A DNA stretch of 64,000 bases from a virus: the IMG/VR virus record IMGVR_UViG_3300020430_000007, one strand, 5' to 3'. The position numbers were made by a program, and so were the translations under genes. The notes under the pieces were generated by a model. It saw only the letters and a list, made by a program, of their open reading frames with translations. It was not told where the DNA came from and made no database searches. Below, piece by piece: positions 12,184-34,121 of the stretch (its first letter is position 1; each line of letters begins with the position of its first letter).

Positions 12184-13173
12184 ATGTACGCTGACAAATC
12201 TGATAAATGGCATCACACAATGGCGAGGTATCTCGGTTTATCTGAGCATACCTCTTTTTTATTTGGTATACTACCAGGTGTATGTCGTGAGGCAATAGGT
12301 CGATACGACTACATGTACACCAAGTTTGAGTGCTTCAATAGCAATAAAACTTATGCTTGGTCATATCATCATGCTAATAAAATAAACAATGGAAGATTTA
12401 GTAATCAAATTGCTTATTACGGCACTGCTCCATTTTTGTGGGAACTCGGTAGAGTCGCAACACAAGGAGATATGCCAGAACCTAAGGGAAGTTTGTTCTT
12501 CTTACCAAGAGACGATCAAGTCACAATAAGAGATAGTGAATACGAAAGCGTACAAAAATTAATTGAATCTGCACCTAGACCAATTACTTTCCTACTGCCT
12601 TGGCGTAAATGTGACATATGGAAAAACTGGGATAAATTGATATTGGGTGGTGATTGTAAAATCATTCAAATGAAAGACCCTGTAACCAGACAAAATACAT
12701 TGTCAAAAACATTTTTAGAGCATGAGCATGTGTATGTGCCTTGGCCTGGCACAGACATTTACTATGCAGAGTTTTTAGATAAAAAAGTGCATGTTTATGA
12801 TAAGTTAGAACAATATCGCACAAAAACTATGGAGGAGATGGAAAGAGAGAACAACATTGTAATACATTATTTAAAATGGGGATATAATTGGTTGACCGAA
12901 GATCAGAGAGTATTTTTTGAGTGGACAAGAAAATGGAATGATATAGATAAAGACATAAGAAAATATCTAACAGAAAAAATGTTAGGACTTGATGTCCTCA
13001 AATCACCATCAGAGTTACACGAAGATCTTATGAATAATAATTTTTTAGAATTTGGTCAACAATTTGTTTATAACTCTGAATATCAAAAATCATATGAGTG
13101 GTTAAAATTTAGGATTCAGGAAAGAAGTCCTCGTCACTCATACCACGATCATCCACATATACAACTGCTCTAG
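12184..13173 (+). CDS. Hypothetical protein, possible glycosyltransferase-like (capsule/LPS-cluster type)
   Basis: 329 aa. GSLFFLPR..PITFLLPWR..GTDIYYAEFL resembles uncharacterised GT-B-like proteins of polysaccharide loci. Adjacent to sugar-pathway genes. Confidence 0.35.
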   Translation: MYADKSDKWHHTMARYLGLSEHTSFLFGILPGVCREAIGRYDYMYTKFECFNSNKTYAWSYHHANKINNGRFSNQIAYYGTAPFLWELGRVATQGDMPEPKGSLFFLPRDDQVTIRDSEYESVQKLIESAPRPITFLLPWRKCDIWKNWDKLILGGDCKIIQMKDPVTRQNTLSKTFLEHEHVYVPWPGTDIYYAEFLDKKVHVYDKLEQYRTKTMEEMERENNIVIHYLKWGYNWLTEDQRVFFEWTRKWNDIDKDIRKYLTEKMLGLDVLKSPSELHEDLMNNNFLEFGQQFVYNSEYQKSYEWLKFRIQERSPRHSYHDHPHIQLL

Positions 13174-13513
13174 GTTTACCAAAATATAATTTGTGATATT
13201 TTACTCCCCACTCCTTGAGTTGTGCTTCAGTCCTTTGTCTACAATAATCATCTGCTTCTTTTTGTGCTGCCAATATATCGTCTTCATGTATACAAATGCT
13301 TCGTATAAATCCACGTGCTGTCATAAGATATATTGTAGCACCCTCATCATATAATTCATTTACATATGCTATGCGTTTTGGTCTTGGTACTGCCTCCCAT
13401 GGTGTACCCTGATGAGGTTCAGTAAGTGTGCCATCAATGTCAATACAATAGATATTCGTGACATGATCTGTGATATCATTGAATTTTTCAACCAAAGGAG
13501 TAATCTTTTTCAT
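13109..13513 (-). CDS. HAD-family phosphatase (capsule biosynthesis phosphatase-like)
   Basis: Motif I DIDGTL, motif II MTARG, motifs III/IV GKP..YVDDR. Confidence 0.85.
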   Translation of the reverse strand: MKKITPLVEKFNDITDHVTNIYCIDIDGTLTEPHQGTPWEAVPRPKRIAYVNELYDEGATIYLMTARGFIRSICIHEDDILAAQKEADDYCRQRTEAQLKEWGVKYHKLYFGKPRAVVYVDDRGMSDEDFFPES

Positions 13514-13965
13514 TTTATGTGAGGTAATTGAGGAAGGTCAACGCCTATGGATTCCATAAGCATGTATATTTGCCATAGGACATTACATTCAAATTCATGA
13601 TATGTCTTAGCAGGTATTATTATAGTGTAAAGTTCTTGGTGTTGTTCTGGAGCAAACAATATAGTGTCTGATTTATCTCTTACACTCAACAATGCATCAG
13701 ATACACCAGCATTAATTCTACATGATATACCTATGACAAGATCAGCGTGTTGTGCATATTGCATCCAAGGCACTTTCCAATCGTTTTTATCTGCTAAGGC
13801 ACTCGTGTTGATGGAATCAGGTGCATAACAAAATTTACCAGTATGTCTGAATATATCAGATGCCATGTGTTGTGCCACTGCCATATTACCACCATTGCCA
13901 AATAGAGCAACAGTTTTTGCTTTCCTTAATTTCTCAGGTGCATCTCGTAAATCTACAGTGAGCAT
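13510..13965 (-). CDS. SIS-domain sugar-phosphate isomerase (GmhA-like, divergent)
   Basis: ALFGNGGNMAVAQHMASD, DLVIGISC and terminal YHEFEC match the GmhA/SIS layout. Confidence 0.75.
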   Translation of the reverse strand: MLTVDLRDAPEKLRKAKTVALFGNGGNMAVAQHMASDIFRHTGKFCYAPDSINTSALADKNDWKVPWMQYAQHADLVIGISCRINAGVSDALLSVRDKSDTILFAPEQHQELYTIIIPAKTYHEFECNVLWQIYMLMESIGVDLPQLPHIK

Positions 13966-14867
13966 AGTACTTGATCTATTAGTTGAGGTAATTTGAGTTG
14001 ACGTTTCAATGGCATGTGATTATCTAATGTAGTATTGTGATCACGTATACATTTATCCATCGGTAACCAGTCATCTAATTCAAAAAAATCTTGATAGTTA
14101 TCTCTATCAAGATTAAATGGTGTGAAAGGTATACCATAATATTCTAGCATACGAGTGATCAAACCATAAGTTTTCCTATGGTTTTTCAACTTACGCACAC
14201 ATTCTGATACAAAATAATCCTGACCACGTTTCCAATGAGCATCACCCACACAACCACGTAAGAATCCTTCAACCAATGATTCAAGATCTTCTTTATATGG
14301 TACTATATTATACCTTAATTTGAACTGGTTGACAATGTATTTTAGGTCAGCAGGAGGATGAGGAGGGTCTAGATCTTCCATATTTTTAGTTATAGTATCT
14401 TCAGCACCAAGAGATCCATTATATCCAAACATAACGTGTGGATTATTCATTGAGTCATGTTCAAGCAGGTGTTCTGCACAGTCATAGAATGTTGTAGGTA
14501 TATCATCTATGTTACCATCTAGTTTTCCCCAGTCTTTCATACTATATCTACCACGAGATGATATGAATGGTGATTCATAAAACCATTGATGTTGTGGTAT
14601 CTCGTTAGGAAACCACTCAGGAAAACAAATGTCTATAGTTTTATTATATGTACTAAAATCTTGTACTGCATACCATGTCTTTAGTTTTCCATTTTGTTGC
14701 CAGTACCATTGTTTTATATAATATCCATTCTCTGCAGGTCTCCATGTTGAAGTGAATATAGGTGTAGAGTGATGGTTGCAACAATATGTTTTCTTATTAT
14801 GAAAGAAGTTTATTACTACTTGCCATCCACCAGTCTTAACATAATTCCAATAACTATATTTTTTCAT
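13953..14867 (-). CDS. Family A paralogue (P-loop/sulfotransferase-fold-like hypothetical)
   Basis: Shares WYW, NP..FGY.G, NIVPYKEDL and IPF..FNLD.D.Y motifs with five other ORFs in the window. Confidence 0.6.
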   Translation of the reverse strand: MKKYSYWNYVKTGGWQVVINFFHNKKTYCCNHHSTPIFTSTWRPAENGYYIKQWYWQQNGKLKTWYAVQDFSTYNKTIDICFPEWFPNEIPQHQWFYESPFISSRGRYSMKDWGKLDGNIDDIPTTFYDCAEHLLEHDSMNNPHVMFGYNGSLGAEDTITKNMEDLDPPHPPADLKYIVNQFKLRYNIVPYKEDLESLVEGFLRGCVGDAHWKRGQDYFVSECVRKLKNHRKTYGLITRMLEYYGIPFTPFNLDRDNYQDFFELDDWLPMDKCIRDHNTTLDNHMPLKRQLKLPQLIDQVLCSL

Positions 14868-15681
14868 AATCTCTTATATAATCATCAACTAATTTCTTTA
14901 CATTTTGTTTCCATGGATTATATGTAAACAATTTATCGTGACTATCTCTTGGTAATACTTTATCTAAGTCAAATGTCTTAGCATAGTCACCACTGTCTAA
15001 TGAAAACATTTCGTATGGAATGTCAAGTCTAGATAAAAATTTTGGTATATATTTTTGAAATTTTCTTATAGTATTAATTAAGATAGTGGTTTCCTCTACT
15101 GATTCGGGTCGCCCAGTACCTGCAAACACATTATATGCTAAGTGTTTTATATCTTCTTTGTACACTACTATATTCTTACGTTTTCTTAGTTCTTCTATTA
15201 TGTGTGATGGTGGGTTGAGATTTGGTCTGTCCTGCTCCATATTTCTCATTTGTTTCTCTGATCCTAGTAATCCAGTGTATCCTAGTAAACCAAATGGATT
15301 TGTTATAAGATCTCTACTCATTATATTATCCACACACTCATAAAAATTTTGATGTGTTGTCCACTCCTTCCTAGGTACAGTTTCGTAACCACGATAATCT
15401 GGAATAGGATACCACATCTCATCATAATGTGCTGATGATAATTTATCTCTTGTGTCAAGATAGTAGTGGTGTGTATTTAATTGCTTTGTCTCTTTGTCAC
15501 ACCAATACCATTCTAGTTCATCTATTGGTATATCAGTCTCAACAAGATCTATTGGTCTACTAAGAACACACCACAGTGGCTTTGATTGTGATAAAAATGC
15601 ACAACTTTTTCTATTATACCAAAATTGACTACGGATGAGACACTTACCAGATTTTATAGATGAAAAATAAGTGTATTTCAT
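14854..15681 (-). CDS. Family A paralogue
   Basis: YFSSIKSGK N-terminal loop, WYW, NPFGLLGY, KNIVVYKEDI, IPYEMFSLDSGDY. Confidence 0.6.
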   Translation of the reverse strand: MKYTYFSSIKSGKCLIRSQFWYNRKSCAFLSQSKPLWCVLSRPIDLVETDIPIDELEWYWCDKETKQLNTHHYYLDTRDKLSSAHYDEMWYPIPDYRGYETVPRKEWTTHQNFYECVDNIMSRDLITNPFGLLGYTGLLGSEKQMRNMEQDRPNLNPPSHIIEELRKRKNIVVYKEDIKHLAYNVFAGTGRPESVEETTILINTIRKFQKYIPKFLSRLDIPYEMFSLDSGDYAKTFDLDKVLPRDSHDKLFTYNPWKQNVKKLVDDYIRDYEKI

Positions 15682-16541
15682 GGATTGTTCCTCACATAAT
15701 CATCAATCCATCCCTCTACGACATCAATAGGTTCAATATAATCATGTAACTTATGGTGGGGATCATCTTCTCTATCAAAAACTTTATCTAAATTAAAACA
15801 TAGTTTATAACTATCTTTGTCTAGATTAAACCACTCATATTTTATATTATAATAATCTAATAAATTTGCGATATCTTGCTCAAGTTGACGATATAAATTG
15901 ATACGTTTGGTTACTTGTCTAATATATTTTTCTGTAGTATTTGTGAAGTGTACATCAGGATGTTTATATTGTAAATGACCTATTCCAATAAAAAAATTTT
16001 TTGCTAAATGTCTTAGATCTTCTTTGTGAGTTACTATATTCTTACGTTTATTAAGTTCATCAATTACATAATCTAATGGTATATTGATTAGATTGGGTTC
16101 ACGATTTACTACTGATTCTGCTAATTGTCTGCCGATACCAGAATAACCTAACATGACAAGAGGATTTACAACATAGTCACATTCCATTGCGATAGGAAAG
16201 ACTTTATGATAATCGCCTTTACCTGTATTGGACGTTTCTATTTCTGGTCTCTTGAGATACTTTATAATATTATAATTTCCATTGGTGGGTATGTAAAAAA
16301 AATGTTCACTATAATGATAATTCAATAAAAAATCTTCATTTACTTTATATGATTTAGTGACTAATCTCCCATCAAGATCTTCCCAATACCAATAAAATTG
16401 TCCATTAGGTTTAACTGAGGTAGAGAATAATGTTTTTCTTTCTCCTAGATTAAAATTAAATGTGGTCTTATTATTGAGTAAGAACATGTCTCTCAACAAA
16501 TACTTACCCGATTTGCCAGGACTAAAATAATTATATTTCAT
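15678..16541 (-). CDS. Family A paralogue
   Basis: YFSPGKSGK, WYWED, NPLVMLGY, KNIVTHKEDL, IKYEWFNLDKDSY. Confidence 0.6.
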   Translation of the reverse strand: MKYNYFSPGKSGKYLLRDMFLLNNKTTFNFNLGERKTLFSTSVKPNGQFYWYWEDLDGRLVTKSYKVNEDFLLNYHYSEHFFYIPTNGNYNIIKYLKRPEIETSNTGKGDYHKVFPIAMECDYVVNPLVMLGYSGIGRQLAESVVNREPNLINIPLDYVIDELNKRKNIVTHKEDLRHLAKNFFIGIGHLQYKHPDVHFTNTTEKYIRQVTKRINLYRQLEQDIANLLDYYNIKYEWFNLDKDSYKLCFNLDKVFDREDDPHHKLHDYIEPIDVVEGWIDDYVRNNP

Positions 16542-17410
16542 GGATATTCACTCACATACCTATCTATCCAACCATCTACCATATATCTCAAATTATCAGG
16601 TAATAATGGTCCTGTTCCCTCAGTCTCATATCTACTAAACTCCTTTGTCACCTCAAATGTTTTGGAATAGTCTCCAGTATCAAGACTCCATCGTTCATAA
16701 GGTATATTATGTCTTTCCATCATAACTCTACAACAGTGATGATATTTTCGTGCTTCATTTAAACGAGTAGATACTATATTATAAAATCTCTCATAGTTAT
16801 CGTCAAATATTTGAGCACCACCAAGAAACCATGATCTTGCCCAATGTCTCAAATCTTCTTTGTATACTATTATATTTTTTCGTCTTCTCATTTGTTCAAT
16901 GGAGTAGTCTAAATCAACATTTAGTTTTCTTATACCTTTTTCAAGTCCTTCATTTAAATGTAATCCTGATATATTATCCTTCACATATCCATAGTATCCT
17001 AACAATACCTCAGGATGTAATATAAAATCACACTCAAAACATTTATCAAATATTTTGTATAAGTTATCAGGATGATACACTGAGGTGTTTTTTAGTTCGT
17101 CTGGAGTATACCTAGCATAGTCTATCGCTAACCAATTAGTAGATGCTAGATTGTCTCTAATTCTTACTTTATGGTCATTTATTGTAGATATAAAATCTAT
17201 GTTATCATATCGTCTAAACTCAGTTGTGCTTCTAATCTTTCCTTCTTTATCTTCCCAATACCATGTTCGTGTGTTATTTTTAGGGTTATATATTATTACA
17301 TGTAAAGGACCATATCCCTTTAGTTTTGCTACGCTCTTACCATTTAGTAATCCTATATTTTGATATTGTAATCTACCACCTCTATCTGTTGAGAAATAAG
17401 AGTTCTTCAT
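16538..17410 (-). CDS. Family A paralogue
   Basis: YFSTDRGGR, WYWED, HPEVLLGY, KNIIVYKEDL, IPYERWSLDTGDY. Confidence 0.6.
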   Translation of the reverse strand: MKNSYFSTDRGGRLQYQNIGLLNGKSVAKLKGYGPLHVIIYNPKNNTRTWYWEDKEGKIRSTTEFRRYDNIDFISTINDHKVRIRDNLASTNWLAIDYARYTPDELKNTSVYHPDNLYKIFDKCFECDFILHPEVLLGYYGYVKDNISGLHLNEGLEKGIRKLNVDLDYSIEQMRRRKNIIVYKEDLRHWARSWFLGGAQIFDDNYERFYNIVSTRLNEARKYHHCCRVMMERHNIPYERWSLDTGDYSKTFEVTKEFSRYETEGTGPLLPDNLRYMVDGWIDRYVSEYP

Positions 17411-18123
17411 TTAGCATTTAAGGCATCTTCTACTATTTGTATATGGTGTGGTCTATCAACACCTTGTGATCTATCTTTATCAGGGAGTAAAAGGGCATCA
17501 ACATGATACTTACCACAAAAACCAATGGTGTCTAATCCTTTCCAGTGTTTGACAAATGTCATGTCAAGATTAGGAAAATCAGCAATGACTGATCTCTTAT
17601 AAAAATACATTCCAAGTTGAGGGACAACATTGTCAGTCGCAATGTCAGGTGTTCTCATGAGATATAATACTCTACCATTGTTTATAGCCATTTGAACCAC
17701 ATCAGGATCCTCATAATCACCATCTAAAGTTTTTCTATATGGTTGAACCATGTCACTACAGTTATCAATTCCATATCTCACAATATAATCTATCTCTTTT
17801 GGATCTGCTAACGGTTCGTCTCCTTGTAAATTGAACACATAATCCACTCCCTGTAAATTTCGTGCTACCTCAGCAACTCTATGAGTACATGTATAATGTG
17901 ATTTAGTCATTATCGCTTCAAATCCCCATTGTTCAACAGTGTCTTTTATAATCTCATCCTCTGTAGCAACAATAATGCGATCAAAATATTTACATTGTTT
18001 TGGTATATCTGCTACTCGTAAGACTAATTCTCTCCCGTTTATTTTTACCAATGGTTTACCAGGAAATCTAGATGATGACATTCGTGCAGGCACAATGCAA
18101 GCGATGTTTTTTTCTCTGTACAT
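17407..18123 (-). CDS. kdsB: 3-deoxy-manno-octulosonate cytidylyltransferase (CMP-Kdo synthetase)-like
   Basis: IVPARMSSSRFPGKPL, IIVATED, NLQGDEPL, QLGMYFY, GVD: canonical KdsB motifs. Confidence 0.85.
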   Translation of the reverse strand: MYREKNIACIVPARMSSSRFPGKPLVKINGRELVLRVADIPKQCKYFDRIIVATEDEIIKDTVEQWGFEAIMTKSHYTCTHRVAEVARNLQGVDYVFNLQGDEPLADPKEIDYIVRYGIDNCSDMVQPYRKTLDGDYEDPDVVQMAINNGRVLYLMRTPDIATDNVVPQLGMYFYKRSVIADFPNLDMTFVKHWKGLDTIGFCGKYHVDALLLPDKDRSQGVDRPHHIQIVEDALNAK

Positions 18124-18128
18124 AATGT

Positions 18129-19034
18129 TTAGATGTTATCTTGTAGTCTACCAGACAATCTCATATCTGTCAAGTTTCGTTTTTGAAGATACTCTTTTGC
18201 CATAGTAGTTGCTAATTTATATCTATCACTTTCTTTATCGTATGGAAACATAGTATATTGTTTAGGGATTTTATTTTCACAAAAAATTTTATAATCATGG
18301 TTATCCAAATCAAGATAATCATATTCAATTTTATTATCTCTAAGTGTTTGTTCTACATTTCTATTGTTTCTAGTGAAATCGTCTAAATGTTTGAACACTA
18401 ATTCTTTATCAAGATACCATGCATCTTCTACATTTTTTACATTTACATTGAATGTTTTATTAGTAGCAGCAGATACAAATAGATTTATTCTAGCAATAGT
18501 AATATCTAATAAATTCTCTTTGTAGGGTATTATATTATTACATGTTCTAAAGTGTTTTGTAAATGGTTTATAGAATATTTGTGGATGTGGTTGAGGTAAA
18601 AATAGGTCACATGTGCATAAATCATTGAAGAAATGGTCATGCCATTTTCTACCATGATCTTCGTATATTGGATAAAGTTTTCTATTATTTTCTTTCCATG
18701 TTCCTACCTTGAATTTCGTTTTTGGTGGATTATTCTTGCCATATCCTAGATAATCTTCATATACAAAGTATTCTATCTTTATACCTGTATCTGTATAATG
18801 ATGTAGCAATTGCTCACTACTAAGACTATCAACTTTTATTACTGGAGTTATTGTGTCTGAGTCATCATATCTTTTATATTTTATATGGTGTTGATCTAAA
18901 TCATGATACTCCCATTTATGTGATACATACTTACCACCAATTTGCATTTGAGTGACAGTTTTTCTATTGTATCTAAATAAACCATTGAAATATGCTTTAC
19001 CATAGTGCCTAGCACCCCAGATGACAAATTTCAT
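18129..19034 (-). CDS. Family A paralogue (divergent)
   Basis: IWGARHYGK, YNRKT, NNIIPYKENL, IEYDYLDLDNHDY. Confidence 0.55.
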   Translation of the reverse strand: MKFVIWGARHYGKAYFNGLFRYNRKTVTQMQIGGKYVSHKWEYHDLDQHHIKYKRYDDSDTITPVIKVDSLSSEQLLHHYTDTGIKIEYFVYEDYLGYGKNNPPKTKFKVGTWKENNRKLYPIYEDHGRKWHDHFFNDLCTCDLFLPQPHPQIFYKPFTKHFRTCNNIIPYKENLLDITIARINLFVSAATNKTFNVNVKNVEDAWYLDKELVFKHLDDFTRNNRNVEQTLRDNKIEYDYLDLDNHDYKIFCENKIPKQYTMFPYDKESDRYKLATTMAKEYLQKRNLTDMRLSGRLQDNI

Positions 19035-19456: not shown

Positions 19457-19532
19457 GTGTCACAATCGCCCACACAAGGGTGATTTTTTTATGTATAATA
19501 TTAGTATATCAAACAAAACAACATGCCTGTAA
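19314..19532 (+). CDS. Small basic hypothetical protein (PNWQHHSKK type seen in cyanomyoviruses)
   Basis: MNIPNWQHHSKK..RLRPQKLRQARKRR matches my recollection of a conserved cyanophage ORF upstream of the cobT-like/cobS pair. Overlaps the previous ORF out of frame. Confidence 0.5.
   Translation: MNIPNWQHHSKKGAKRRLRPQKLRQARKRRSQFLTRLEKESKRNQLNKCHNRPHKGDFFMYNISISNKTTCL
19442..19499 (+). promoter_or_regulatory. Early promoter element copy 1 (palindrome + TATAAT)
   Basis: AACCAGTT-GAAT-AAGTGTCACA with TATAAT at 19494, 48 nt from the CAGT. Confidence 0.75.
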
Positions 19533-21727
19533 ACATAGAAATCAAAGGTAACTTAGCAAGACTACTTGCCACTGAGAACCTTATTGTTGAGCACAAAAAA
19601 GTAGAGACTGCTCAATTCAACACACAAACAAGAGTTTTGACTCTACCCATATGGAATACATCAAGTAATTTTGTTTATGATATGCTCGTAGCACACGAGG
19701 TAGGTCATGCATTATTTACTCCATGCGTTGATTGGAAACAAGATAAGTACAAATCTGTACCTCACTCATATGTCAATATTGTAGAGGATGCACGTATTGA
19801 GAGACTCATGAAAAACAAATTTGCAGGTCTAAACAGAGATTTCTACAAAGGATATGAAGAGTTGAACTCAAGTGACTTTTTTGAATTGAGTGACAAAAAT
19901 GTCAATAAAATGAAATTTATCGATAAAATCAATCTATACTTCAAACTAGGTGCCTTTCTATGTCTTGAGTTCAATGATATTGAAAATCAATTCATCACTG
20001 AAATATCACAATCAGAAACATTTGAACAAGTTCTTGACATTTCACTTAGAGTTTATCAGTATTCTAAAGAGCAACAACAAGCAAGACAAAAAATGCTTGA
20101 CTTAGCACAAACAAGTGAAGATAAAAACAACAATGATGATGAGGATCTTCAATCACCATCATATCAAAGAGATTATCAATCAGAAAGTGATGATGAGATT
20201 GATGACTCTGCAGATATTGATGATCCTGATTTTGAACCATCAGATGAAGTTGACGATGATGATGAAATTGACGGTGGTAGCACTGCAGGCAATCATGCGG
20301 GTGATTGGAATAACATTGATGAGAGTGATACTCAAGATGCATTTGACAATAACAGTGAGAAACTCAGAGATACTGATAGTAAAGAAACCACTTATATCAA
20401 TCTACCAGAGGTAAGACTTGACAAAGTTGTTGTACCATTTGATGTTATCAATGAATACCTAACAGATCACTTTCTTACTGAGAAAACAAGTCAGCAAGAT
20501 AATCATACAAACTACGTTGGTAATGCGATTCTCAAAGACACAAATGATTTCAGACAGTACAAAAAGTCAGCATCTAAAGATGTCAATCACCTTGTAAAAG
20601 AGTTTGAAATGAAGAAATCAGCAGATTCATACGCTAGACAGGCAACTGCTAGGACAGGTGTTCTTGATACATCTAAATTGCATACTTATATGTTCAATGA
20701 AGATATATTCAAAAAGATAACTGTTATTCCAGAGGGTAAAAATCATGGTCTTGTGTTTTTACTTGATTGGTCTGGTTCAATGTCTAACATACTTGAGAAT
20801 ACTTTGAAGCAATTATTCAATCTAGTATGGTTTTGTAGAAAAGTCAATATACCTTTTGAGGTTTATGCCTTTACAAATGATTCATGGTCATTATGGGGTG
20901 ATTACAACGAGGAAACAAGATATTATGAACTTGATGGATCTAAACTTGTAAAGTCATACAATACAAATGATTTACATATTGAGGGTGGTTTCAGAATGGT
21001 AAACATTCTCACTAGCACTGCAAAATCTAAAGATATTGACAATATGATGCTAAATCTATGGTTACAAACAAGAGCGATGAACTTTCGCATGTATAATTGG
21101 GGTCGCAAGTTTACTTTATCAGGAACACCACTCAATGAAGCAATTGTGTGTGTAGGACAACTCACTAAGCAATTTATCAAAAATGCTAAGTTGCAAAAAT
21201 CTCATGTTATTATATTGACTGACGGTGATGGTTATCACCCATCATACAACCATAACTTTATATCCTCTCATACTGGTAAAGAGAGACAATGTGTAAATTC
21301 AGTGCCAACGTGGTCTAGCACAATTAGAGTGGGTAGTAGATCATTTATCTGCACCACTGGTGATGTTGATTTTACAAACAAAATGGTTGAAGCAGTAAAA
21401 AGCACATTACCAAACACAAGTTTTATTGGAATACGTATTCTTGATAGCAGATCATATTCATGTTTCTATAATAAGTTTGGTAGATTATCATTTGATTATT
21501 TTGAAGACATGAAGAGTGAACTAAGGAAAAACGGTGCGGTGTTCTTCAAAAACAAATCATTTGATTTATGGTGTGGAGTGGTTCAAAAATCATTACATAC
21601 AGATGCAGATCTAGAGGTAGATCAAGGTGCTGCAAAAAGACAAATCACTGCTGCGTTCAAAAAAATGAACAAGGGTAAGAAATCCAACAAATTCATGGTC
21701 AAAGAGTTCATAAAACAAATTGCTTGA
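19523..21727 (+). CDS. CobT-like VWA-domain protein with N-terminal zincin (HExxH) peptidase-like domain
   Basis: HEVGH motif, NIVEDARIE, acidic linker, MIDAS LLDWSGSM, GTP and LTDG; immediately upstream of cobS. Confidence 0.85.
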   Translation: MPVNIEIKGNLARLLATENLIVEHKKVETAQFNTQTRVLTLPIWNTSSNFVYDMLVAHEVGHALFTPCVDWKQDKYKSVPHSYVNIVEDARIERLMKNKFAGLNRDFYKGYEELNSSDFFELSDKNVNKMKFIDKINLYFKLGAFLCLEFNDIENQFITEISQSETFEQVLDISLRVYQYSKEQQQARQKMLDLAQTSEDKNNNDDEDLQSPSYQRDYQSESDDEIDDSADIDDPDFEPSDEVDDDDEIDGGSTAGNHAGDWNNIDESDTQDAFDNNSEKLRDTDSKETTYINLPEVRLDKVVVPFDVINEYLTDHFLTEKTSQQDNHTNYVGNAILKDTNDFRQYKKSASKDVNHLVKEFEMKKSADSYARQATARTGVLDTSKLHTYMFNEDIFKKITVIPEGKNHGLVFLLDWSGSMSNILENTLKQLFNLVWFCRKVNIPFEVYAFTNDSWSLWGDYNEETRYYELDGSKLVKSYNTNDLHIEGGFRMVNILTSTAKSKDIDNMMLNLWLQTRAMNFRMYNWGRKFTLSGTPLNEAIVCVGQLTKQFIKNAKLQKSHVIILTDGDGYHPSYNHNFISSHTGKERQCVNSVPTWSSTIRVGSRSFICTTGDVDFTNKMVEAVKSTLPNTSFIGIRILDSRSYSCFYNKFGRLSFDYFEDMKSELRKNGAVFFKNKSFDLWCGVVQKSLHTDADLEVDQGAAKRQITAAFKKMNKGKKSNKFMVKEFIKQIA

Positions 21728-21782
21728 CCAGTTTACAAAGTGGTACATCATCGGTTGATTTACCACTTTTATCAATTATAAT
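21725..21782 (+). promoter_or_regulatory. Early promoter element copy 2
   Basis: TGACCAGTT-TACA-AAGTGGTACA, TATAAT at 21777 (48-nt spacing). Confidence 0.7.
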
Positions 21783-21807
21783 ACTATTATACAAACAAAT
21801 CTTTATT

Positions 21808-22938
21808 ATGACACTTATTCCTCACAAATATACAGACGTTGAATTGTTTGACTTACTCAAAAAGTATGATGACTCAGCAATCACATCAAAAGACTTACAA
21901 GAGATTGCAGATCACTTTGATGTAAAAGTATCTTCACTACGTAGAAGAATGAAGAGAAAAGGTTTTGAGTACAATGCTAAGAAAAAAACATATGCATTGA
22001 CTAAAACTCAACTCAAATCTGCAAAAAAACAACTTGAGACACAATTTGAGAAACCTCATGTTTTTGCTACTGAGCAAAAAGAGAATCTTGTGCCTACTAT
22101 AGACGACACATTTATCAAGTTTGGTGCATTTCCTGATCTCAAGAAAATTATACAATCAAGATTGTTTTATCCTATCTTCATCACTGGTATGTCAGGCAAC
22201 GGAAAAACTTTCGGTGTTGAACAAGCATGCTCTCAAACTAAGAGAGAGCTTATCAGAGTAAACATCACTGTTGAGACTGATGAAGATGATCTTATCGGTG
22301 GTTTCAGACTTGTCAACGGTGAGACTGTATGGCATAACGGTCCAGTTATTGAAGCATTAGAGCGTGGTGCTATATTATTATTAGATGAAGTTGATCTTGC
22401 ATCTAACAAGATATTATGTTTACAATCTATTCTAGAGGGTAAAGGTGTATTTCTCAAAAAGATTGGTAAGTTTGTCAAACCTAATGAGGGTTTCAATATT
22501 GTAGCAACTGCCAATACAAAAGGTAAAGGCAGTGATGACGGTAGGTTTATTGGCACAAATGTTCTCAATGAAGCATTTCTTGAGCGTTTTCCTATTACCA
22601 TTGAGCAAGACTACCCCACTGTAGGTGTAGAGTCAAAAATATTGACTAAAGTTGCAGAGTCATTGAATATTCCTATGATAAGTGAGCACAAAAACTTCAT
22701 TACACACTTGTGCAACTGGGCAGAGATTGTTCGTAAGACTTTCAATGATGGTGGTGTTGATGAGATCATATCAACACGTAGATTGACTCACATCATGCGA
22801 GCATATTCTATCTTCGGTGATAAGATGAAGTCTGTTCAAATGTGTCTCAACAGATTTGATGATGAGACTAAGGAGTCATTTATTCAATTATACACTAAAT
22901 TGGATGATACTGTAAATGTTTCAGAGTCAACACAATAG
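21808..22938 (+). CDS. cobS: CobS-like / MoxR-family AAA+ ATPase
   Basis: Walker A GMSGNGKT, Walker B LLLDEVD, ATANTKGKG, LERF, ISTRRL. The ATG at 21808 follows the promoter. Confidence 0.9.
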   Translation: MTLIPHKYTDVELFDLLKKYDDSAITSKDLQEIADHFDVKVSSLRRRMKRKGFEYNAKKKTYALTKTQLKSAKKQLETQFEKPHVFATEQKENLVPTIDDTFIKFGAFPDLKKIIQSRLFYPIFITGMSGNGKTFGVEQACSQTKRELIRVNITVETDEDDLIGGFRLVNGETVWHNGPVIEALERGAILLLDEVDLASNKILCLQSILEGKGVFLKKIGKFVKPNEGFNIVATANTKGKGSDDGRFIGTNVLNEAFLERFPITIEQDYPTVGVESKILTKVAESLNIPMISEHKNFITHLCNWAEIVRKTFNDGGVDEIISTRRLTHIMRAYSIFGDKMKSVQMCLNRFDDETKESFIQLYTKLDDTVNVSESTQ

Positions 22939-24261: not shown

Positions 24262-25485
24262 ATGACAACTAAAGAGAATCCACAAAAGGATAACCATGTT
24301 ATATGTGGTTATCCTTTTTATGCTATTAGAAATGGTCCGAGTATAAACTATGCTCCATGTTGTTGGGCAAGGACAAAAAGCGTGTGTGGACCTCAAAACA
24401 CCCCTGCTATTGATTATTTCAAAGGCAATATATTCAATGAAATGAGGAGAGATATGTTGAGAGGTGTAAAGAGTGATTTGTTATTGGACACTTGCTCTTT
24501 ATGTTATAAAAATGAGGAGAATAACGGTTCATCTGCTAGACTTCAATCCGAGGTAGATTGGAGTGTGCTTGATAATTTTGATAGTGATGGTAAAATGATT
24601 GATAATAATAACAGATTTATAAAATTAGAACTCAATGCTTTTGGCAATCATTGTAACTTAGAATGTTATGAATGTCAACCAGACAACTCAAGTAGAAGGG
24701 AAGAGCGTTTGAAGAAGATGGGCACAAAGTGGCAAGCGATATTGGGTAAGTATTCATTTGTTGATAGGGATGTAAAAAAGAAAAATAAAGTGTTATGGAG
24801 AGAGTTTGTCAATGATTTAGTGCAACATAGTAGGAATATAAAAATGTTATCTTTTTGTGGTGGTGAACCAATGTCAATGGTATCACATTTTGATATATTG
24901 GATGCACTCATTGACAGTGGTGATTCTAAAGAGATAGAATTATATTATGTCTCAAATATGACAATGTTTACATTACCTAAAATGAGAAGATACATTGACA
25001 AATTCAAGTGGATGAACATACAATGGAGTGTGGATGGCATAGGTGAGAGAAATTATTGGTTGAGATATCCAACAAATTGGAACAATACTGTAAAAAATGT
25101 ATTAGACGTGCAACAATATCTTTATTATACTAAACCATGGAAAATAGGAAAGATTGAAGCAACAATAACACCATCATTATTAGGTGTACTCAAGTTGAGA
25201 GAGACAGTAGATTGGATGAATAAACATGATCTAATGCAAGATAATCCTATGATAAACAGAATTGATGAACCAAAAATATGTCAAACAAGACATTTACCAG
25301 ATGAGATAAAACAAAAGATAGGTGATGATGTCAAATCAGTGTCCGAGTATCATTATAATGATATGATGGAGAAGAGAGACCCTTATTATTTTGGGTTGGC
25401 AATAAAGTATTTTGATGCACTTGATAAATCAAGGGGCACTGACTGGAGAGCAACGTTTCCTGAGTTAGCATGTTATACCAACTAA
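24262..25485 (+). CDS. Radical SAM protein with N-terminal Cys-rich (SPASM/twitch-like) segment
   Basis: CNLECYEC (CxxxCxxC), GGEP, SVDG; N-terminal C..PCC..CSLC. Confidence 0.85.
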   Translation: MTTKENPQKDNHVICGYPFYAIRNGPSINYAPCCWARTKSVCGPQNTPAIDYFKGNIFNEMRRDMLRGVKSDLLLDTCSLCYKNEENNGSSARLQSEVDWSVLDNFDSDGKMIDNNNRFIKLELNAFGNHCNLECYECQPDNSSRREERLKKMGTKWQAILGKYSFVDRDVKKKNKVLWREFVNDLVQHSRNIKMLSFCGGEPMSMVSHFDILDALIDSGDSKEIELYYVSNMTMFTLPKMRRYIDKFKWMNIQWSVDGIGERNYWLRYPTNWNNTVKNVLDVQQYLYYTKPWKIGKIEATITPSLLGVLKLRETVDWMNKHDLMQDNPMINRIDEPKICQTRHLPDEIKQKIGDDVKSVSEYHYNDMMEKRDPYYFGLAIKYFDALDKSRGTDWRATFPELACYTN

Positions 25486-26300
25486 TTGACGTTAGATTTA
25501 CACCAGAATGTAAAGAACTTCATGAACTATTGACCGATAATTGTTTTGAGTTTGAGTCCTCTGATGATATTGTTAGTTCATTAGAAGAACATTATAACAT
25601 CAAGATTGAAAGTCTAGCATGGTGTAATGTGATCGACCAGATTGATAGTGATGGTAAAGTAACTGTCACATTGAATAACCAATGTGTTATAATACCTGCT
25701 ATAATGAATACAAGATTAGTTGGGATACCACCTAATTTTAGATATGATCCTAAAAGAAAACTTATTGGAGGTTTCAACATGATATTGGCAGAGTGGATAC
25801 ACAATTATAAATGCCATGATGATGCTGTAAATAATAGAGATATTGATCCCTATAACGGCTCACCATTTCAAATCTACAAAGATATGAGCAGTAAACGTAA
25901 GGGTAAGTTTTTTGAAATGATAGTTGCTGAGTATTGTGAAAATTTAGGATGTCTTGTAGAAAGAGCAACAAACTCTGAACATGATAGAATAATAAGTAAG
26001 CAGAAAGCAGAAATCAAGGGATCAACTTTATGGGAAGGTCACGATGAGTTGTTTAGATGGCAACAAATACGACCAAATCAAGATTATGACATTATGATAT
26101 TTCTTGCAATGTATCCTGATAGAGTTGATCTTTTTGCAAGTAAAAAGAAAGATGTAGTTGACTACGTTACAAAACAAGATGAGGATGGTAACTTTATCCA
26201 TAATCAACATGGTGGAAAGAGCGTTGATAGTGGTACATATTTCATACAAGGTAAACCATCTGATTTTCCATTTTTTAGACCCATACAAAGCGTAATATGA
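25470..26300 (+). CDS. Putative PD-(D/E)XK restriction endonuclease-like protein
   Basis: KGKFFE..EHDRII..KAEIKGS fits E..D..ExK geometry; directly upstream of two methyltransferases. Confidence 0.5.
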   Translation: MLYQLIDVRFTPECKELHELLTDNCFEFESSDDIVSSLEEHYNIKIESLAWCNVIDQIDSDGKVTVTLNNQCVIIPAIMNTRLVGIPPNFRYDPKRKLIGGFNMILAEWIHNYKCHDDAVNNRDIDPYNGSPFQIYKDMSSKRKGKFFEMIVAEYCENLGCLVERATNSEHDRIISKQKAEIKGSTLWEGHDELFRWQQIRPNQDYDIMIFLAMYPDRVDLFASKKKDVVDYVTKQDEDGNFIHNQHGGKSVDSGTYFIQGKPSDFPFFRPIQSVI

Positions 26301-27091
26301 AACTCAATGAAATACAGGAAAGAGATTGTATCGAGTATTTGAACACACTTGATGACAACTCAGTTGATCTTATCATTACTGATCCACCGTACAACATATC
26401 ATTTGATGGTGGCAAGGGATGGGATTCACAATGGAAAACTGAAGAGGATTATCTAAAATGGTGTGATACATGGACTACAGAGTTGGTACGTGTGCTAAAA
26501 CCTAATCGCATGATGATAGTGTGGGGTACTCTCAAAACAGATACATTTCTAAAATATAAACTATTGTTGAGTTCATATAATCAATTAGTATCACAAAATG
26601 AGATAGTGTGGAGTTATAATTGGGGTGGACGCACTAAGGATAATTTTGCACGTAAACATGAATATGCATGGTGTTATTCAAAAGGTGATAAGTTTCTATT
26701 CAATCGTGATGATGTAAGAGTTGAGCGTAAAGTGAAAAGAAATCTAAGAACTGGTGAGAATTATAGTCAGGGAACTATACCTACATGTGTATGGGAAAAG
26801 AATAATCATACAGCAAGTAAGGAACACTGCGGGTGGCACCCTACAACCAAAAACTTAGATGTGATATCAAGAATGGTAAGAGCATATTCAAACGAGGGTG
26901 ATACTGTTTTAGATATATTCATGGGTAGTGGATCAACTGCTATTGCATCTATGATGAATAAACGTAATTATGTTGGATGTGAACTTGATCCTAATTATAA
27001 TGAATTGATGAAAGAAAGAATATCATCTTATGCCACTAATACTATTGGCACAATACAACAACCAAATCCCATATTATCTACTATTGCATGA
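26297..27091 (+). CDS. DNA methyltransferase, beta class (N6-adenine likely)
   Basis: Motif IV DPPY, HPTTK, motif I DIFMGSGST. Confidence 0.9.
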   Translation: MKLNEIQERDCIEYLNTLDDNSVDLIITDPPYNISFDGGKGWDSQWKTEEDYLKWCDTWTTELVRVLKPNRMMIVWGTLKTDTFLKYKLLLSSYNQLVSQNEIVWSYNWGGRTKDNFARKHEYAWCYSKGDKFLFNRDDVRVERKVKRNLRTGENYSQGTIPTCVWEKNNHTASKEHCGWHPTTKNLDVISRMVRAYSNEGDTVLDIFMGSGSTAIASMMNKRNYVGCELDPNYNELMKERISSYATNTIGTIQQPNPILSTIA

Positions 27092-27957
27092 TGAAAGACA
27101 CAATCTTATATGGAGACTGTCGTGATACACTCAATAATGTAATAAATTCGTCAGTGCAGATGTGTGTTACATCCCCCCCTTATTATGGTCTTAGAGACTA
27201 TGGTGGTGAGGATTCACAAATTGGACAAGAGCAAACACCTGAGGAGTATATCAAACAATTAGTTGACTTGTTTAGTGTAGTAAGAGACAAACTAAAAGAT
27301 GATGGTGTATTATGGGTGAATATTGGTGATAGTTATTATAACTATAGGAGTGGTAAAGGTCAAGCATTACCAAAACAAACAGTGAGCAAAACTAATCAAG
27401 ACTTACCCACTAAATGCAATCGTAGAGCAAATAAACTAAAAGGATATAAAGAAAAAGATTTGATGGGCATACCATGGATGTTAGCATTTGCACTACGTGC
27501 AGATGGATGGTATCTTCGTCAGGATATCATATGGCACAAACCTAATCCAATGCCTGAGTCAGTGCGTGATAGATGTACAAAATCACATGAATATATTTTC
27601 CTATTGAGTAAGAATAGAAATTATTATTTTGATGTTGATGCCATCAAAGAACCAACAAGAAGAAAGAGGAGTGTGTGGAATGTGACAAAGAGACCATATA
27701 AGGGTGCACATTTTGCAGTATTCCCACCTGATTTGATTGAACCATGTATATTGGCAGGCAGTGACAAGGGTGATATCATATTAGATCCGTTTATGGGTAG
27801 TGGTACAACTGCACTGGTAGCAAAATCCTTAGAAAGACATTTTATTGGATGCGAATTGCATCAACAATATGATAACCTAATAAAAGAGAGATTGAGCAAT
27901 GTGACAATCAAGAAACCTGCACAGTCTACACCAAATCCATTAGAACTACTGCTATAA
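27088..27957 (+). CDS. DNA methyltransferase, beta class (N4-cytosine likely)
   Basis: Motif IV TSPPY, HFAVFP, motif I DPFMGSGTT. Confidence 0.9.
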   Translation: MMKDTILYGDCRDTLNNVINSSVQMCVTSPPYYGLRDYGGEDSQIGQEQTPEEYIKQLVDLFSVVRDKLKDDGVLWVNIGDSYYNYRSGKGQALPKQTVSKTNQDLPTKCNRRANKLKGYKEKDLMGIPWMLAFALRADGWYLRQDIIWHKPNPMPESVRDRCTKSHEYIFLLSKNRNYYFDVDAIKEPTRRKRSVWNVTKRPYKGAHFAVFPPDLIEPCILAGSDKGDIILDPFMGSGTTALVAKSLERHFIGCELHQQYDNLIKERLSNVTIKKPAQSTPNPLELLL

Positions 27958-30699: not shown

Positions 30700-30700
30700 T

Positions 30701-31013: not shown

Positions 31014-31014
31014 C

Positions 31015-31359
31015 ATGCGTAAAATCGAATCACAAATGAACAATGCAATCAAAAACAAAATTGCATGGTCTAAAGACAACACACTCACCACTTTTGACAA
31101 TACTCTTGAAAATTGCTTTGTTTACCTACATGGAAATCATATTGCAACTTACAATTATGAATCTCAAGAGTTATCCTTATTCGATGGCGGATGGCAGTCC
31201 AATACAACTAAATCTAGACTCAACGCACTTTGCTATGAGTTTGCAACTGGTTTTTCAGTATTTCAAAAAAACTGGAATTGGTTTGTAAGTGACTTTCAAG
31301 CAAAAACAATCAAGAATTTCACTGACGGCATTACAGTAAATTACAACGGATGTTTCTAA
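31015..31359 (+). CDS. Conserved early phage protein (MRKIE..VYLHGNHIA..TTKSRLNA type)
   Basis: Recognisable motif set of a widespread small early phage protein. Confidence 0.75.
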   Translation: MRKIESQMNNAIKNKIAWSKDNTLTTFDNTLENCFVYLHGNHIATYNYESQELSLFDGGWQSNTTKSRLNALCYEFATGFSVFQKNWNWFVSDFQAKTIKNFTDGITVNYNGCF

Positions 31360-31399
31360 TAACATCCTCTACAAATCACTCTACTAAGTAACAACTATC

Positions 31400-31573: not shown

Positions 31574-32225
31574 GTAACACGCATGAGACCCGCACTAACA
31601 ACAACTCAACCAAATTACACACGTAAAAGTATTACAAATACTAGTGTTATTCTCCCTGATAATGTATATAAATCGTTATTCAAAATGCATCCATCTGATG
31701 CTTACATATTCGGTATAGATTGTGAACCGCAAAATGTTATAAATGTATAAAAAAACATATGTTTGTTTTATATAAACTTTGTAAATGTTCTCACTAATTG
31801 TTACCTTAGCGAGCAACATAACAAAAGTCAAGTATAAGAATTGTGGAGTGACTTCGCCACTATCTAACACAAAAGACAGTCAATTTGTCCCTTATTCTTT
31901 ATAACAATTATGAGCAAATTGCAGGCACTATCTGAACTCGAAGCAGCAAGTACTTCAAGGACAGTTAGACACATTTTATACAAATATTACAGAGGTAACT
32001 GGTAACAATTATAAGACATTCAACAGATATATTATAACACATACTTGAAAGGATTGCAAGGGGTACGGATAACACGAATTGACAGTGTTTTTCGTGCCTT
32101 TTGTGTTATAATGGGGGGGCGGTTAGCTAAAAAAGCAAACAACCCTAACCTACAAAAGTATCCCAACGAGCGATATATAAAAAAAATCGCAAAAAAATTT
32201 TTTGCCCTTAAAAAAAATTCTGGAT
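31574..32225. other. Largely non-coding AT-rich region, candidate replication origin
   Basis: Longest ORF-poor stretch. Contains the AT palindrome TATAAAA-AAACATATGTTT-GTTTTATA, an extended -10 (TGTTATAAT, TATAAT at 32107) followed by G7, then A/T tracts and a GCGAT..ATCGC hairpin. Confidence 0.4.
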
Positions 32226-33173
32226 ATGTTTGTATACTGGGGATCTAATGATTCTGGCAAGGCACATCTGAAGCACTATGCCAAACTGAATAATAAAACG
32301 GTTCTCATGTGGTGGCCGAATGAGATTCATAAGGTAAAGACCACAACCCATATCAATGAATGGTCATGGGCGGATGAGACTGTTCATCGTATCAAGTATC
32401 ATGACTTGGACGGTTTTCGTAAATGTGAAAAGACAGAAAACCAGATATGGATAAACACGTTTCTATTTGAAAATTACGCTGCTACTATTAAGAGTACAAT
32501 CAACCCTACCATAAATAAAGGTAAATATGGAAAACATGAAAAACATAAGAAGATATACACAAAAGAACAAATAAAGAAATATACACAGAAGGAGTATATC
32601 AACACTTCAGTATACTTTGATATTATCTCAACGTTTAATAAAGCATATGGTAATGGTATCTGTAAACCATTGACTCATGATACTCTAAAGAATCACTATG
32701 ATGAGATACTGGAAGATGTAGATGTAATCACATTCACTCTCCCAGACTGGGCGATAGATGATTTAGAGGATGTACTCAGAAAGTCTGTCAATATCATACC
32801 GTATAAATCAAATCAACTTGATTCGGCAATCAGTAAATTAGATCACTTCAATAATGTAGAGAAGACAAATCTATTTGAAGTTTACAAAACTGATAAGAAG
32901 AGAGTATGGCGTTACCTAGATTGGTATCGTGAGGAAGTGGATAATACAATAGACAAACTATCACAGCGTAACATACCTTATACATTGTTTGATTTAGATA
33001 CTGATAGTTACCCTGAAACTTTTGGATGGGAAATTGACGTAGATCGTAAGTTCAGTCATCGAGGTGTAGCATGGAATCATGAGAATTATAACAGAGTCAA
33101 AGAAATTGCCGAGGAGTATGTCATAAATAAGTCAGGATACTATCACGATAAAAATGGCATACACAAGGGATGA
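32226..33173 (+). CDS. Family A paralogue (sixth copy, remote from the others)
   Basis: MFVYWGSNDSGK..LNNKT, NIIPYKSN, IPYTLFDLDTDSY. Confidence 0.6.
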   Translation: MFVYWGSNDSGKAHLKHYAKLNNKTVLMWWPNEIHKVKTTTHINEWSWADETVHRIKYHDLDGFRKCEKTENQIWINTFLFENYAATIKSTINPTINKGKYGKHEKHKKIYTKEQIKKYTQKEYINTSVYFDIISTFNKAYGNGICKPLTHDTLKNHYDEILEDVDVITFTLPDWAIDDLEDVLRKSVNIIPYKSNQLDSAISKLDHFNNVEKTNLFEVYKTDKKRVWRYLDWYREEVDNTIDKLSQRNIPYTLFDLDTDSYPETFGWEIDVDRKFSHRGVAWNHENYNRVKEIAEEYVINKSGYYHDKNGIHKG

Positions 33174-33369
33174 TGACGGTTTAGTAGGAAAAATCACACG
33201 GAACTCTGCAGGTAAATATGAGTGGAGTTTAGGTGAGTTTTATAAAGATGCTGAGATTGTTGGTAAGACTGGCACTTTTAATGGAAGGACACAACTTGTA
33301 AAAGGAACCGAAGATGATTACGACACCGCAGCAGCAGCACTAAAAGCAGCATTCGTGGCAGCAGAATAG
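33154..33369 (+). CDS. Small hypothetical protein, probably late
   Basis: 71 aa; CATAAATA late-promoter-like box at 33122-33129. Confidence 0.55.
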   Translation: MAYTRDDDGLVGKITRNSAGKYEWSLGEFYKDAEIVGKTGTFNGRTQLVKGTEDDYDTAAAALKAAFVAAE

Positions 33370-34121
33370 CATCGAAGCATACATATATCAGCTGAGTAGA
33401 CAATAAAAGTATATCCTTCTTGTCGCCTCTCAGAGAATTCTTCTTTAGGATCCTTTGAGAGGTGATTTCCTGGTATGTGATAACCGATTGGCACATTATT
33501 TCGTAGACATCCTTTCTTGAACTCTCCTAACACTTGCAAGTATTTGACATTTTCAAAATCACCTGCACAACCGAGAGATGCTGAAAGATCATACGGACCT
33601 ATCAGTGCAACATCCACATCGACACTTAGAATCTCATCGATGTTTTCCACAGCTTCGTAGTGTTCTATCATTGGTATGAGTAACGGTTGTTGTCCTAATC
33701 CTTCTCGGTGCTCATGAAATTGTATACCATACCCGTTTCCTCTGTTAAACCCTATACCCCGTGTGCCTCTGGGTGGCAGCGAGAAACTCTCTTTTATCTC
33801 AGAGAGTTGTGATTTATTTCTTATTTGAGGAACTATGATACCAGCAGCACCTTGTTCTAATGCTTCAATGGCACAATAGGAGTCTGGTTTAGATATACGT
33901 GCTAAAGGTAATGTATTGCCTAATTCCAATGCCCGAAATATGTTTGGTAACTGATCACGTGTAATATTACTATGTTCTAAGTCTACTCCTATAAAATCAA
34001 ATCCTTGTGATCCTAAGATCTCTGCAACCTCAGGACAGGGTAATTGCATCCAAGACCCTACAACATGTCTACCTTCTGCTAAATATTGTCGAATCTTTTG
34101 AACTGCTGCAAATTTATTCAT
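33318..34121 (-). CDS. HpcH/HpaI-family class II pyruvate aldolase
   Basis: GSWMQL..GFDFIGVDLEHS, PLARI, GAAGIIVPQI, PPRGTRG, MIEH, IGPYDLSASLG. Confidence 0.9.
   Translation of the reverse strand: MNKFAAVQKIRQYLAEGRHVVGSWMQLPCPEVAEILGSQGFDFIGVDLEHSNITRDQLPNIFRALELGNTLPLARISKPDSYCAIEALEQGAAGIIVPQIRNKSQLSEIKESFSLPPRGTRGIGFNRGNGYGIQFHEHREGLGQQPLLIPMIEHYEAVENIDEILSVDVDVALIGPYDLSASLGCAGDFENVKYLQVLGEFKKGCLRNNVPIGYHIPGNHLSKDPKEEFSERRQEGYTFIVYSADICMLRCYSAATNAAFSAAAAVS

Follow-up and report, generated by a model that had tools for sequence, protein, structure and literature searches.

The 64,000-nucleotide stretch of IMG/VR virus record IMGVR_UViG_3300020430_000007 analysed here (the window, meaning that whole stretch) is part of an uncultured T4-like cyanomyovirus (Kyanoviridae). 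It carries a conserved virus module composed of a SIS-fold protein, a HAD phosphatase, a KdsB-like cytidylyltransferase and a GT-B-fold transferase and, in a separate gene island, an HpcH/HpaI pyruvate aldolase whose cellular relatives recurrently accompany KdsB-like genes. The module (12184–19034) holds no carbon–carbon bond-forming synthase of its own; most related phages must take the bond-forming step from the host. We propose, at a probability of about 40%, that in this phage an acquired aldolase supplies the step missing from the module, which would make the two gene sets a facultative route to a cytidine monophosphate (CMP)-activated sugar acid resembling 3-deoxy-D-manno-octulosonate (Kdo). 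The genes that carry the argument are the following:

12184–13173, plus strand: GT-B-fold transferase, candidate user of the CMP-activated donor (AlphaFold2 (AF2) model, structural matches, conserved neighbour)
13109–13513, minus strand: HAD phosphatase of the AfhF/1xpj type (DIDGT motif, phrog_1238, model of a fused orthologue)
13510–13965, minus strand: single-domain SIS protein (GmhA/DiaA-like), putative sugar-phosphate isomerase of 151 residues (profile, model)
17407–18123, minus strand: KdsB-like CTP_transf_3 cytidylyltransferase of a virus-specific clade (Pfam, NCBIfam, PDB, tree, motif alignment)
33318–34121, minus strand: HpcH/HpaI class II pyruvate aldolase (Pfam, NCBIfam, residue alignment, tree)

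The four genes on the minus strand lie exactly where the initial annotation had placed them, and they are real genes rather than chance open reading frames (ORFs), because homologues occur in many loci. That annotation had read them as one complete pathway with the aldolase in place of KdsA, an interpretation that is partly supported by the evidence laid out below. It had also noted that the window lacks kdsA, and a tblastn search with cyanobacterial KdsA indeed gives nothing better than E 5.6; no synthase family was matched among the window ORFs scanned with Pfam, which were a part of the total.

The module is defined by its conservation. Forty-seven viral loci were collected through the KdsB-like protein, and the window proteins were mapped onto each of them. 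The SIS gene adjoins the KdsB-like gene in all 47, the HAD gene is present in 43, and a GT-B homologue is adjacent in 41, a count that includes distant versions with another gene order. SIS and HAD form a single ORF in at least 17 of these loci. The KdsB-like, SIS and HAD genes, together with the GT-B gene, are a conserved virus module.

The KdsB-like protein belongs to the CTP_transf_3 family (Pfam E 7e-28). Its best 13 PDB matches are all KdsB, and its top NCBIfam matches are all KdsB models, every one of them under its cut-off (154.1 bits vs 255 for NF009905, 91.8 vs 155.2 for TIGR00466 and 147 vs 193 for NF003952). When aligned to solved KdsB structures, it retains the catalytic motifs PARMSSSRFPGKP and QGDEP, and the P-loop PxRxxSxRxPxKP is present. 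At the positions of Escherichia coli KdsB, Gln98 and Tyr185 are retained, His181 is replaced by Gln, and the LEQLR segment, which together with His181 we take to contact Kdo, reads LDTIG. Gln98 and Tyr185 are described as contacts of the C5 hydroxyl of Kdo, and His181 is only named in modelling (PMC12199768). Relative to canonical KdsB, the changes of His181 to Gln and of the Glu of LEQLR to Asp are common to the phage proteins and to the aldolase-paired cellular proteins described below. The early suspicion that the product might not be Kdo itself probably holds, given these differences in the sugar pocket. The sugar of the module would be a 2-ulosonic acid related to Kdo and probably distinct from it.

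The closest relative of the KdsB-like protein (P0001, 80% identity) lies on a 52-kb contig, and marine metagenomes hold more than 100 clusters (at 90% identity) with at least 58% identity to it, yet cultured phages have almost none. In a scan of one genome per prokaryotic species, the nearest cellular matches reach merely ~34% identity, and the phage clade is therefore virus-specific. From the 151 IMG/VR stretches that encode a KdsB relative, 79 distinct loci were fetched, about half of them of the module type. Thirty-two other viral loci carry a more canonical KdsB, ~30–33% identical to that of the window, and a KdsA-like gene lies within 10 kb in one of the 32 (L082, 10001–20455). A KdsB gene without a nearby synthase seems to be the rule in phages.

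The SIS and HAD ORFs have no Pfam match, and their labels had at first rested on motifs. Both labels are upheld. The HAD protein has DIDGT as its motif I and matches phrog_1238 (3e-23), and the profile of the SIS protein finds weak DiaA/GmhA matches in the PDB (E 0.004–0.02). The decisive support comes from the predicted structure of an orthologue in which the two proteins are fused (L044:10653–11549), modelled by AlphaFold with a predicted local distance difference test (pLDDT) score of 82. The model's N-terminal domain matches SIS domains, including those of GmhA (5i01, 1x92, 2i2w; Foldseek E ~1e-5), with template modelling (TM) scores, by target, of ~0.56–0.58 against GmhA structures. The C-terminal domain matches AfhF of phage HY126 (9iqw; Foldseek E 1.5e-5, 27% identity) and 1xpj (Foldseek E 2e-5, 32% identity). 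AfhF of phage HY126 is an arabinose-1,5-bisphosphate phosphatase (PMC13326640).

Neither protein is of the type used in canonical Kdo synthesis. The SIS protein, with its single domain, has no counterpart of the tandem CBS domains that follow the SIS domain in KdsD, and KdsD structures are not among the top Foldseek matches. Against the GmhA equivalog TIGR00441 it scores 12.9 bits, for a cut-off of 209; its QH..SD aligns with the QH..AE of GmhA, and the C-terminal catalytic His is not confidently placed. The HAD protein is AfhF-like rather than KdsC-like, with no KdsC model among its NCBIfam matches at E up to 1. Its homologues occur in 268 phage records, including an RB69 ORF051-like gene, and the family is also present in cultured cyanophages, there together with PfkB or GHMP kinases and nucleotidyltransferases. 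The flanking genes of this small HAD encode a PfkB kinase, a cytidylyltransferase-like protein and a cupin in P-SSM2 (L165, 238199–239992), and a class II (adducin-type) aldolase, a GHMP kinase and an NTP_transferase in Bellamy (L166, 167422–171524). The name ‘phosphoheptose isomerase’ given to these cyanophage HADs and to phrog_1238 appears wrong, and this name, like plain ‘KdsB’ labels, misleads when attached to phage genes.

The GT-B protein has no Pfam match either. Its AF2 model (pLDDT 84, predicted TM score 0.86) aligns in VIA-align with TarL (Z 9.5), Bcs3 with CMP (Z 9.4) and TagF (Z 9.0), and Foldseek returns weak GT-B matches.

The aldolase is identified with confidence by the Pfam model HpcH_HpaI (E 4e-17, 62.6 bits against a cut-off of 25). 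The catalytic His and Arg and the metal-binding Glu and Asp of its DLEHS, PLARI, MIEH and GPYDLS motifs are kept relative to solved HpcH aldolases and are invariant among its relatives. At the C-terminus (33318–33375), the last ~19 residues form an Ala/Ser-rich tail; the relatives match residues 1–248 only and end earlier, without this tail, which may reflect a displaced stop codon or a frameshift close to the 3′ end of the gene.

Cellular genomes provide the evidence that links this aldolase family to KdsB-like enzymes. Scanning one genome per prokaryotic species with the KdsB-like alignment gave 38 cellular loci, and in 26 of them the strand of the KdsB-like gene also carries an HpcH aldolase within ~4 kb upstream of it, directly adjacent in 21. 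These aldolases are 30–43% identical to that of the window, and the pair is found in hosts that include SAR86, other Gammaproteobacteria, Legionellaceae, Sulfurimonas, Omnitrophota, Planctomycetota, Bdellovibrionota, Alphaproteobacteria and Methanoperedens archaea, with Pfam confirming it in SAR86, Methanoperedens and Sulfurimonas. Its neighbours are a 2-hydroxyacid dehydrogenase and an ELM1-like protein in SAR86, a methyltransferase in Methanoperedens and a carbamoyltransferase in Sulfurimonas; no relation was found between the phage GT-B family and the ELM1-like protein. A 3.5-kb metagenome contig (L117) has a HAD, an aldolase and an SDR together with a KdsB scoring above the NF009905 cut-off. 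The map of cellular loci weakens the view that the aldolase and the KdsB-like gene have nothing to do with each other. No description of the HpcH aldolase/KdsB-like pair was found in the literature searched, a coverage that leaves out most subscription journals.

Two of these loci merit separate mention. In Sulfurimonas sp. CS5 (L144, 7234–10606), the ends of an HpcH aldolase gene, a KdsB-like gene and a gene for a full-length NodU-type carbamoyltransferase abut or overlap, an arrangement that suggests a carbamoylated ulosonic acid as the predicted product. In L117, the aldolase is split over two frames (475–921 and 976–1212, within 475–1212), through a frameshift or an error in sequencing.

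Four of the pair-bearing bacteria have, in addition, a canonical kdsA and another CTP_transf_3 gene; the pair is therefore a distinct second pathway in these cells. In the pair-bearing Methanoperedens G199 and picocyanobacterium G087, kdsA was not detected. The host family of the phage has an aldolase homologue in 5 of 151 genomes, with the pair at L172 and L174, and one 1.6-Mb genome of this family, in which no kdsA was found, encodes an SDR, a HAD, an aldolase and a KdsB-like protein in a row. A kdsA above the curated cut-off is present in 83 of the 151 genomes, and the small genomes are mostly without one. In a small picocyanobacterial genome (L173, G100:C14:14863–18573), an aldolase homologue lies ~600 bp from a genuine kdsA, so that both types of synthase can coexist at one locus.

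Phylogenetic analysis ties the phage proteins to this cellular pairing on both sides. In a maximum-likelihood tree of KdsB, all aldolase-paired KdsB-like proteins fall in one clade (100/95), and the clade of the phage module (100/100) is placed in its sister group, a relation that is supported but not strongly (91/94); the canonical KdsBs of the same genomes fall outside the paired and phage group. In the aldolase tree, the 19 phage sequences form one clade nested within the paired aldolases, and its sister group (99) consists of the KdsB-paired aldolases from L143 and L148 (Legionellaceae and Isosphaeraceae).

The facultative route might proceed as follows. The SIS isomerase would make or adjust a sugar phosphate, and the AfhF-like HAD would take off the terminal phosphate. 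The aldolase would condense pyruvate (or hydroxypyruvate) with an aldose or aldose phosphate, filling in the carbon–carbon step missing from the module, and the KdsB-like enzyme would attach CMP at the anomeric hydroxyl of the resulting 2-ulosonic (keto-acid) sugar. The GT-B transferase could then hand the sugar to a glycan of the host surface or to a protein of the virion. For this phage, the outcome would be a route to a CMP-activated Kdo-like acid that is independent of the host and of phosphoenolpyruvate (PEP). The analysis demonstrates the identities and folds of the genes, the conservation of the module, the fusion of SIS and HAD, the pairing in cells and the phylogenetic placements; we infer all substrates, the sequence of reactions, the acceptor and, for this phage, any cooperation of the aldolase with the KdsB-like enzyme. 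The position of the module beside fibre genes, and likewise the large tailoring island, are compatible with decoration of the virion or of the host surface.

The aldolase itself belongs to that tailoring island. An all-against-all BLAST of the window proteins yields three paralogue families (A, B and C), of which B and C are found here:

34120–34701, plus strand: Family C protein, always adjoining the aldolase in relatives and a paralogue of the SGNH/GDSL-like protein at 36384–37085
34653–43343: array in which eight sulfotransferase-fold Family B paralogues are mixed with Family C and one other gene (BLAST, profile)
43340–44719, plus strand: NodU/CmcH-type carbamoyltransferase (Pfam Carbam_trans_N and Carbam_trans_C; phrog_1601, 9e-93)

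The Family B profile matches sulfotransferases in the PDB with an E of 2.6e-5. The carbamoyltransferase is 31% identical to the one beside the Sulfurimonas pair, which is a generic relation only. In every viral or marine metagenome contig that has it, the aldolase stands beside Family C and Family B genes and near a carbamoyltransferase.

Several observations weigh against a joint function of the aldolase and the module. The two are 15 kb apart in the window, separated by early genes and DNA methylases, and they are never close in any locus. No aldolase lies within 10 kb of the module in any of the 47 loci, and none is encoded in the 40 other module-bearing whole records. The four genes, read by the initial annotation as one complete route, do not form a conserved unit. 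An 80-kb record that covers the whole interval from fibre to baseplate genes is without the aldolase, and a module-bearing 192-kb genome (G009), complete by CheckV, contains no HpcH, KdsA/DAHP-synthase, NeuB or DHDPS/NanA-type gene. IMG/VR yields four aldolase loci against the 151 stretches with a KdsB relative, and repeating the scan with an aldolase alignment recovered no loci beyond the four. No contig shows the aldolase and the module together in a close relative, the aldolase contigs stopping before the module region. The limited support for the sister relation in the KdsB tree is a further reservation, and the pocket of the phage KdsB-like protein has diverged further than that of the paired clade (LDTIG vs [VI]DMMR, with upstream acidic residues lost), so that the sugar of the phage enzyme may differ from the product of the aldolase. 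The aldolase may instead serve the sulfotransferase-fold/SGNH island alone. The proposal that an HpcH aldolase stands in for KdsA is supported by its recurrence beside KdsB-like genes in cells and not by conservation in phages, and gene neighbourhoods reveal aldolase/KdsB-like pairs in cellular genomes and two separate modules in phages.

The strongest alternative, which we consider doubtful, follows from these same absences: the module would make ordinary CMP-Kdo, or a near relative, through the KdsA of the host, the phage boosting only the supply of arabinose-5-phosphate, the dephosphorylation of Kdo-8-phosphate and CMP activation, and the unrelated aldolase would serve the sulfotransferase/carbamoyltransferase island, where it is always found. 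The occurrence of the module without a phage synthase in 40 records and a complete genome speaks for this explanation, other viral KdsB genes likewise lack a nearby synthase, and the 83 host-family genomes with kdsA could provide one; the scarcity of kdsA in small-genome picocyanobacteria tells the other way. In favour of a Kdo role for the HAD, the target of AfhF is the 5-phosphate of an arabinose phosphate, at the end that is also phosphorylated in Kdo-8-phosphate, a structural parallel that we infer, but the GmhA/DiaA-like SIS protein has none of the CBS domains of KdsD. The KdsB-like protein also argues against this alternative, being under every KdsB equivalog cut-off, changed at Kdo-contact positions and clustered with the aldolase-paired paralogues rather than with canonical KdsB, and the aldolase is itself a member of the KdsB-paired family.

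An improbable third possibility dispenses with both synthase and kinase. In three steps, an isomerase, a phosphatase and the direct attachment of CMP to a neutral ketose or aldose would give a new CMP-sugar. The complete genome G009 is without a synthase of the four families tested, the minimal module of L004 and L005 contains no kinase, and the sugar pocket is strongly diverged, with acidic and Arg positions lost. To our knowledge, however, the CTP_transf_3 enzymes characterised so far all use a 2-keto-3-deoxy acid sugar as substrate. The fusion of SIS and HAD suggests tightly coupled steps, but it is no proof of consecutive ones, because E. coli kdsD and kdsC are adjacent although their steps are not consecutive.

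Phages RB69, DLP3 and HY126 make arabinosyl-5-hydroxycytosine DNA through a UDP-arabinose pathway that comprises an arabinose-5-phosphate isomerase, AfhE, AfhF and GT-B transferases (PMC13326640). That the module feeds such DNA hypermodification is very unlikely: the nearest structures of its HAD (AfhF 9iqw and 1xpj) are the same as those of RB69 gp51 and DLP3 gp81, RB69 ORF051-like genes are among the HAD homologues, and an isomerase and a GT-B protein occur together in a T4-like phage, but DNA glycosylation is disfavoured because no ThyA-like 5-hydroxy- or hydroxymethyl-cytosine synthase (PF00303) is found in G009 or in any of four further large records and because activation relies on an enzyme of another type, a KdsB-type nucleotidyltransferase rather than a MurU-like/kinase AfhE, with no kinase or NTP_transferase among the window ORFs scanned.

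The remaining paralogues belong to Family A, of which six members are encoded in the window:

13953–14867, 14854–15681, 15678–16541 and 16538–17410, minus strand: four Family A paralogues in tandem, inserted after the KdsB-like gene and before the SIS gene on this strand
18129–19034, minus strand: distant Family A-like paralogue upstream of the KdsB-like gene (BLASTP to 32202–33173, E 4e-8; alignment)
32202–33173, plus strand: distant Family A-like paralogue adjoining the aldolase (BLASTP, alignment with Family A)

The tandem copies match one another in pairwise BLASTP with E values from 5e-10 to 7e-35. All six proteins are 275–323 residues long and share a G-rich, KSGK-like motif at the N-terminus and the conserved motif NI(V/I)xYKE, and the copy number varies from 0 to 6 across related phages. 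Family A has no match in Pfam, PHROGs, NCBIfam, PDB sequences or the ESM Atlas, and no relation to Family B is detectable.

The assignment of the virus rests on the wider gene map. Long fibre-like genes occupy 15–10999, a gp6-type baseplate wedge protein is encoded at 46930–48807 (phrog_219, E 2.5e-190) and a second baseplate wedge subunit at 60765–62303, and a Kyanoviridae Gp96 protein is found at 31015–31359. The closest GenBank record is the uncultured ‘Marine virus AG-345-D19’, and psbA and psbD are present in related IMG/VR records. The structural genes, Gp96, the match to AG-345-D19 and psbA/psbD in the relatives therefore identify a T4-like cyanomyovirus. Adjoining the module in nearly all related loci is a gene pair (19523–22938 in the window) for a 734-residue protein (phrog_459 ‘peptidase’, E 1.5e-232, no Pfam match) and, after it, an ATPase of the AAA_5 type (McrB/dynein-like). 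The interval that separates the two glycan modules encodes a weak radical-SAM-like protein (24262–25485), followed by an unannotated 276-residue protein, and two tandem N6_N4 DNA methylases (26297–27091 and 27088–27957).

A bolder reading, which we regard as unlikely, combines a complete phage-encoded route that needs neither host nor PEP (isomerase, then HpcH aldolase, AfhF-like phosphatase and KdsB-like enzyme), the TagF-like GT-B protein and heavy tailoring by the eight sulfotransferase-fold enzymes, the carbamoyltransferase, the SGNH enzymes and the six Family A proteins into a virus-specified acidic glycan that no cell makes, displayed on the virion or on the surface of the infected cell.

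Cyanomyoviruses are among the most abundant viruses of the ocean, and their ‘lipopolysaccharide (LPS)-like’ genes have never been given a chemistry. The present analysis defines a widespread virus-specific module of SIS-HAD, a KdsB-like enzyme and a GT-B transferase and connects its ancestry with a cellular route that has apparently not been described, one where a pyruvate aldolase would replace the PEP-dependent synthase of Kdo or sialic-acid pathways. If the enzymes act as proposed, this would be a new way of making activated acidic sugars and would help in studying how phages modify the surface of their hosts or their own virions.

The module was compared with known systems. With the canonical CMP-Kdo pathway (KdsD, KdsA, KdsC, KdsB), it has in common a protein of SIS fold, a HAD phosphatase and an enzyme of the KdsB family with the CTP-binding and QGDEP motifs. 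Unlike that pathway, it comes without KdsA in the window, its SIS protein is single-domain and has no CBS pair, its HAD is AfhF/1xpj-like rather than YrbI/KdsC-like (YrbI-type HAD-IIIA), and its KdsB-like protein is below all equivalog cut-offs with changed Kdo-contact positions. With the RB69/DLP3/HY126 pathway it shares a T4-like phage background, the AfhF HAD family, a SIS isomerase and GT-B transferases; it differs in lacking the AfhE kinase/uridylyltransferase, in its activation by a KdsB-type CMP-transferase and in that no ThyA-like hydroxylase was found in the complete relative of the window phage. The TagF/TarL/Bcs3 polymerases, which are CMP-releasing GT-B enzymes, are the best structural matches of the protein encoded at 12184–13173 (Z 9.0–9.5), which shares 8–12% sequence identity with them at a moderate Z and has no Pfam match. 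Synechococcus phage S-SCSM2R was reported as the first cyanophage with kdsA and kdsB (PMC12801897). It too is a cyanomyovirus with a KdsB gene, but its KdsB is 26% identical to that of the window and stands beside a true KdsA, with no SIS/HAD/GT-B module.

A further parallel is the cellular aldolase/KdsB-like cassette. The phage aldolase is nested among the paired aldolases, the KdsB-like clade of the phages stands as sister to the paired one, and some versions of the cassette also carry a HAD gene and a carbamoyltransferase, as the phage does. In the cassette, the genes are adjacent or overlapping and the HAD is of the HAD-IA type, whereas in the phage they are 15 kb apart in different modules, the HAD is of the AfhF type, a SIS protein is added, and most related phages hold the KdsB-like part only. 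What appears to be new is this viral, split form of the aldolase/KdsB-like pairing, together with the SIS-HAD/KdsB-like/GT-B module.

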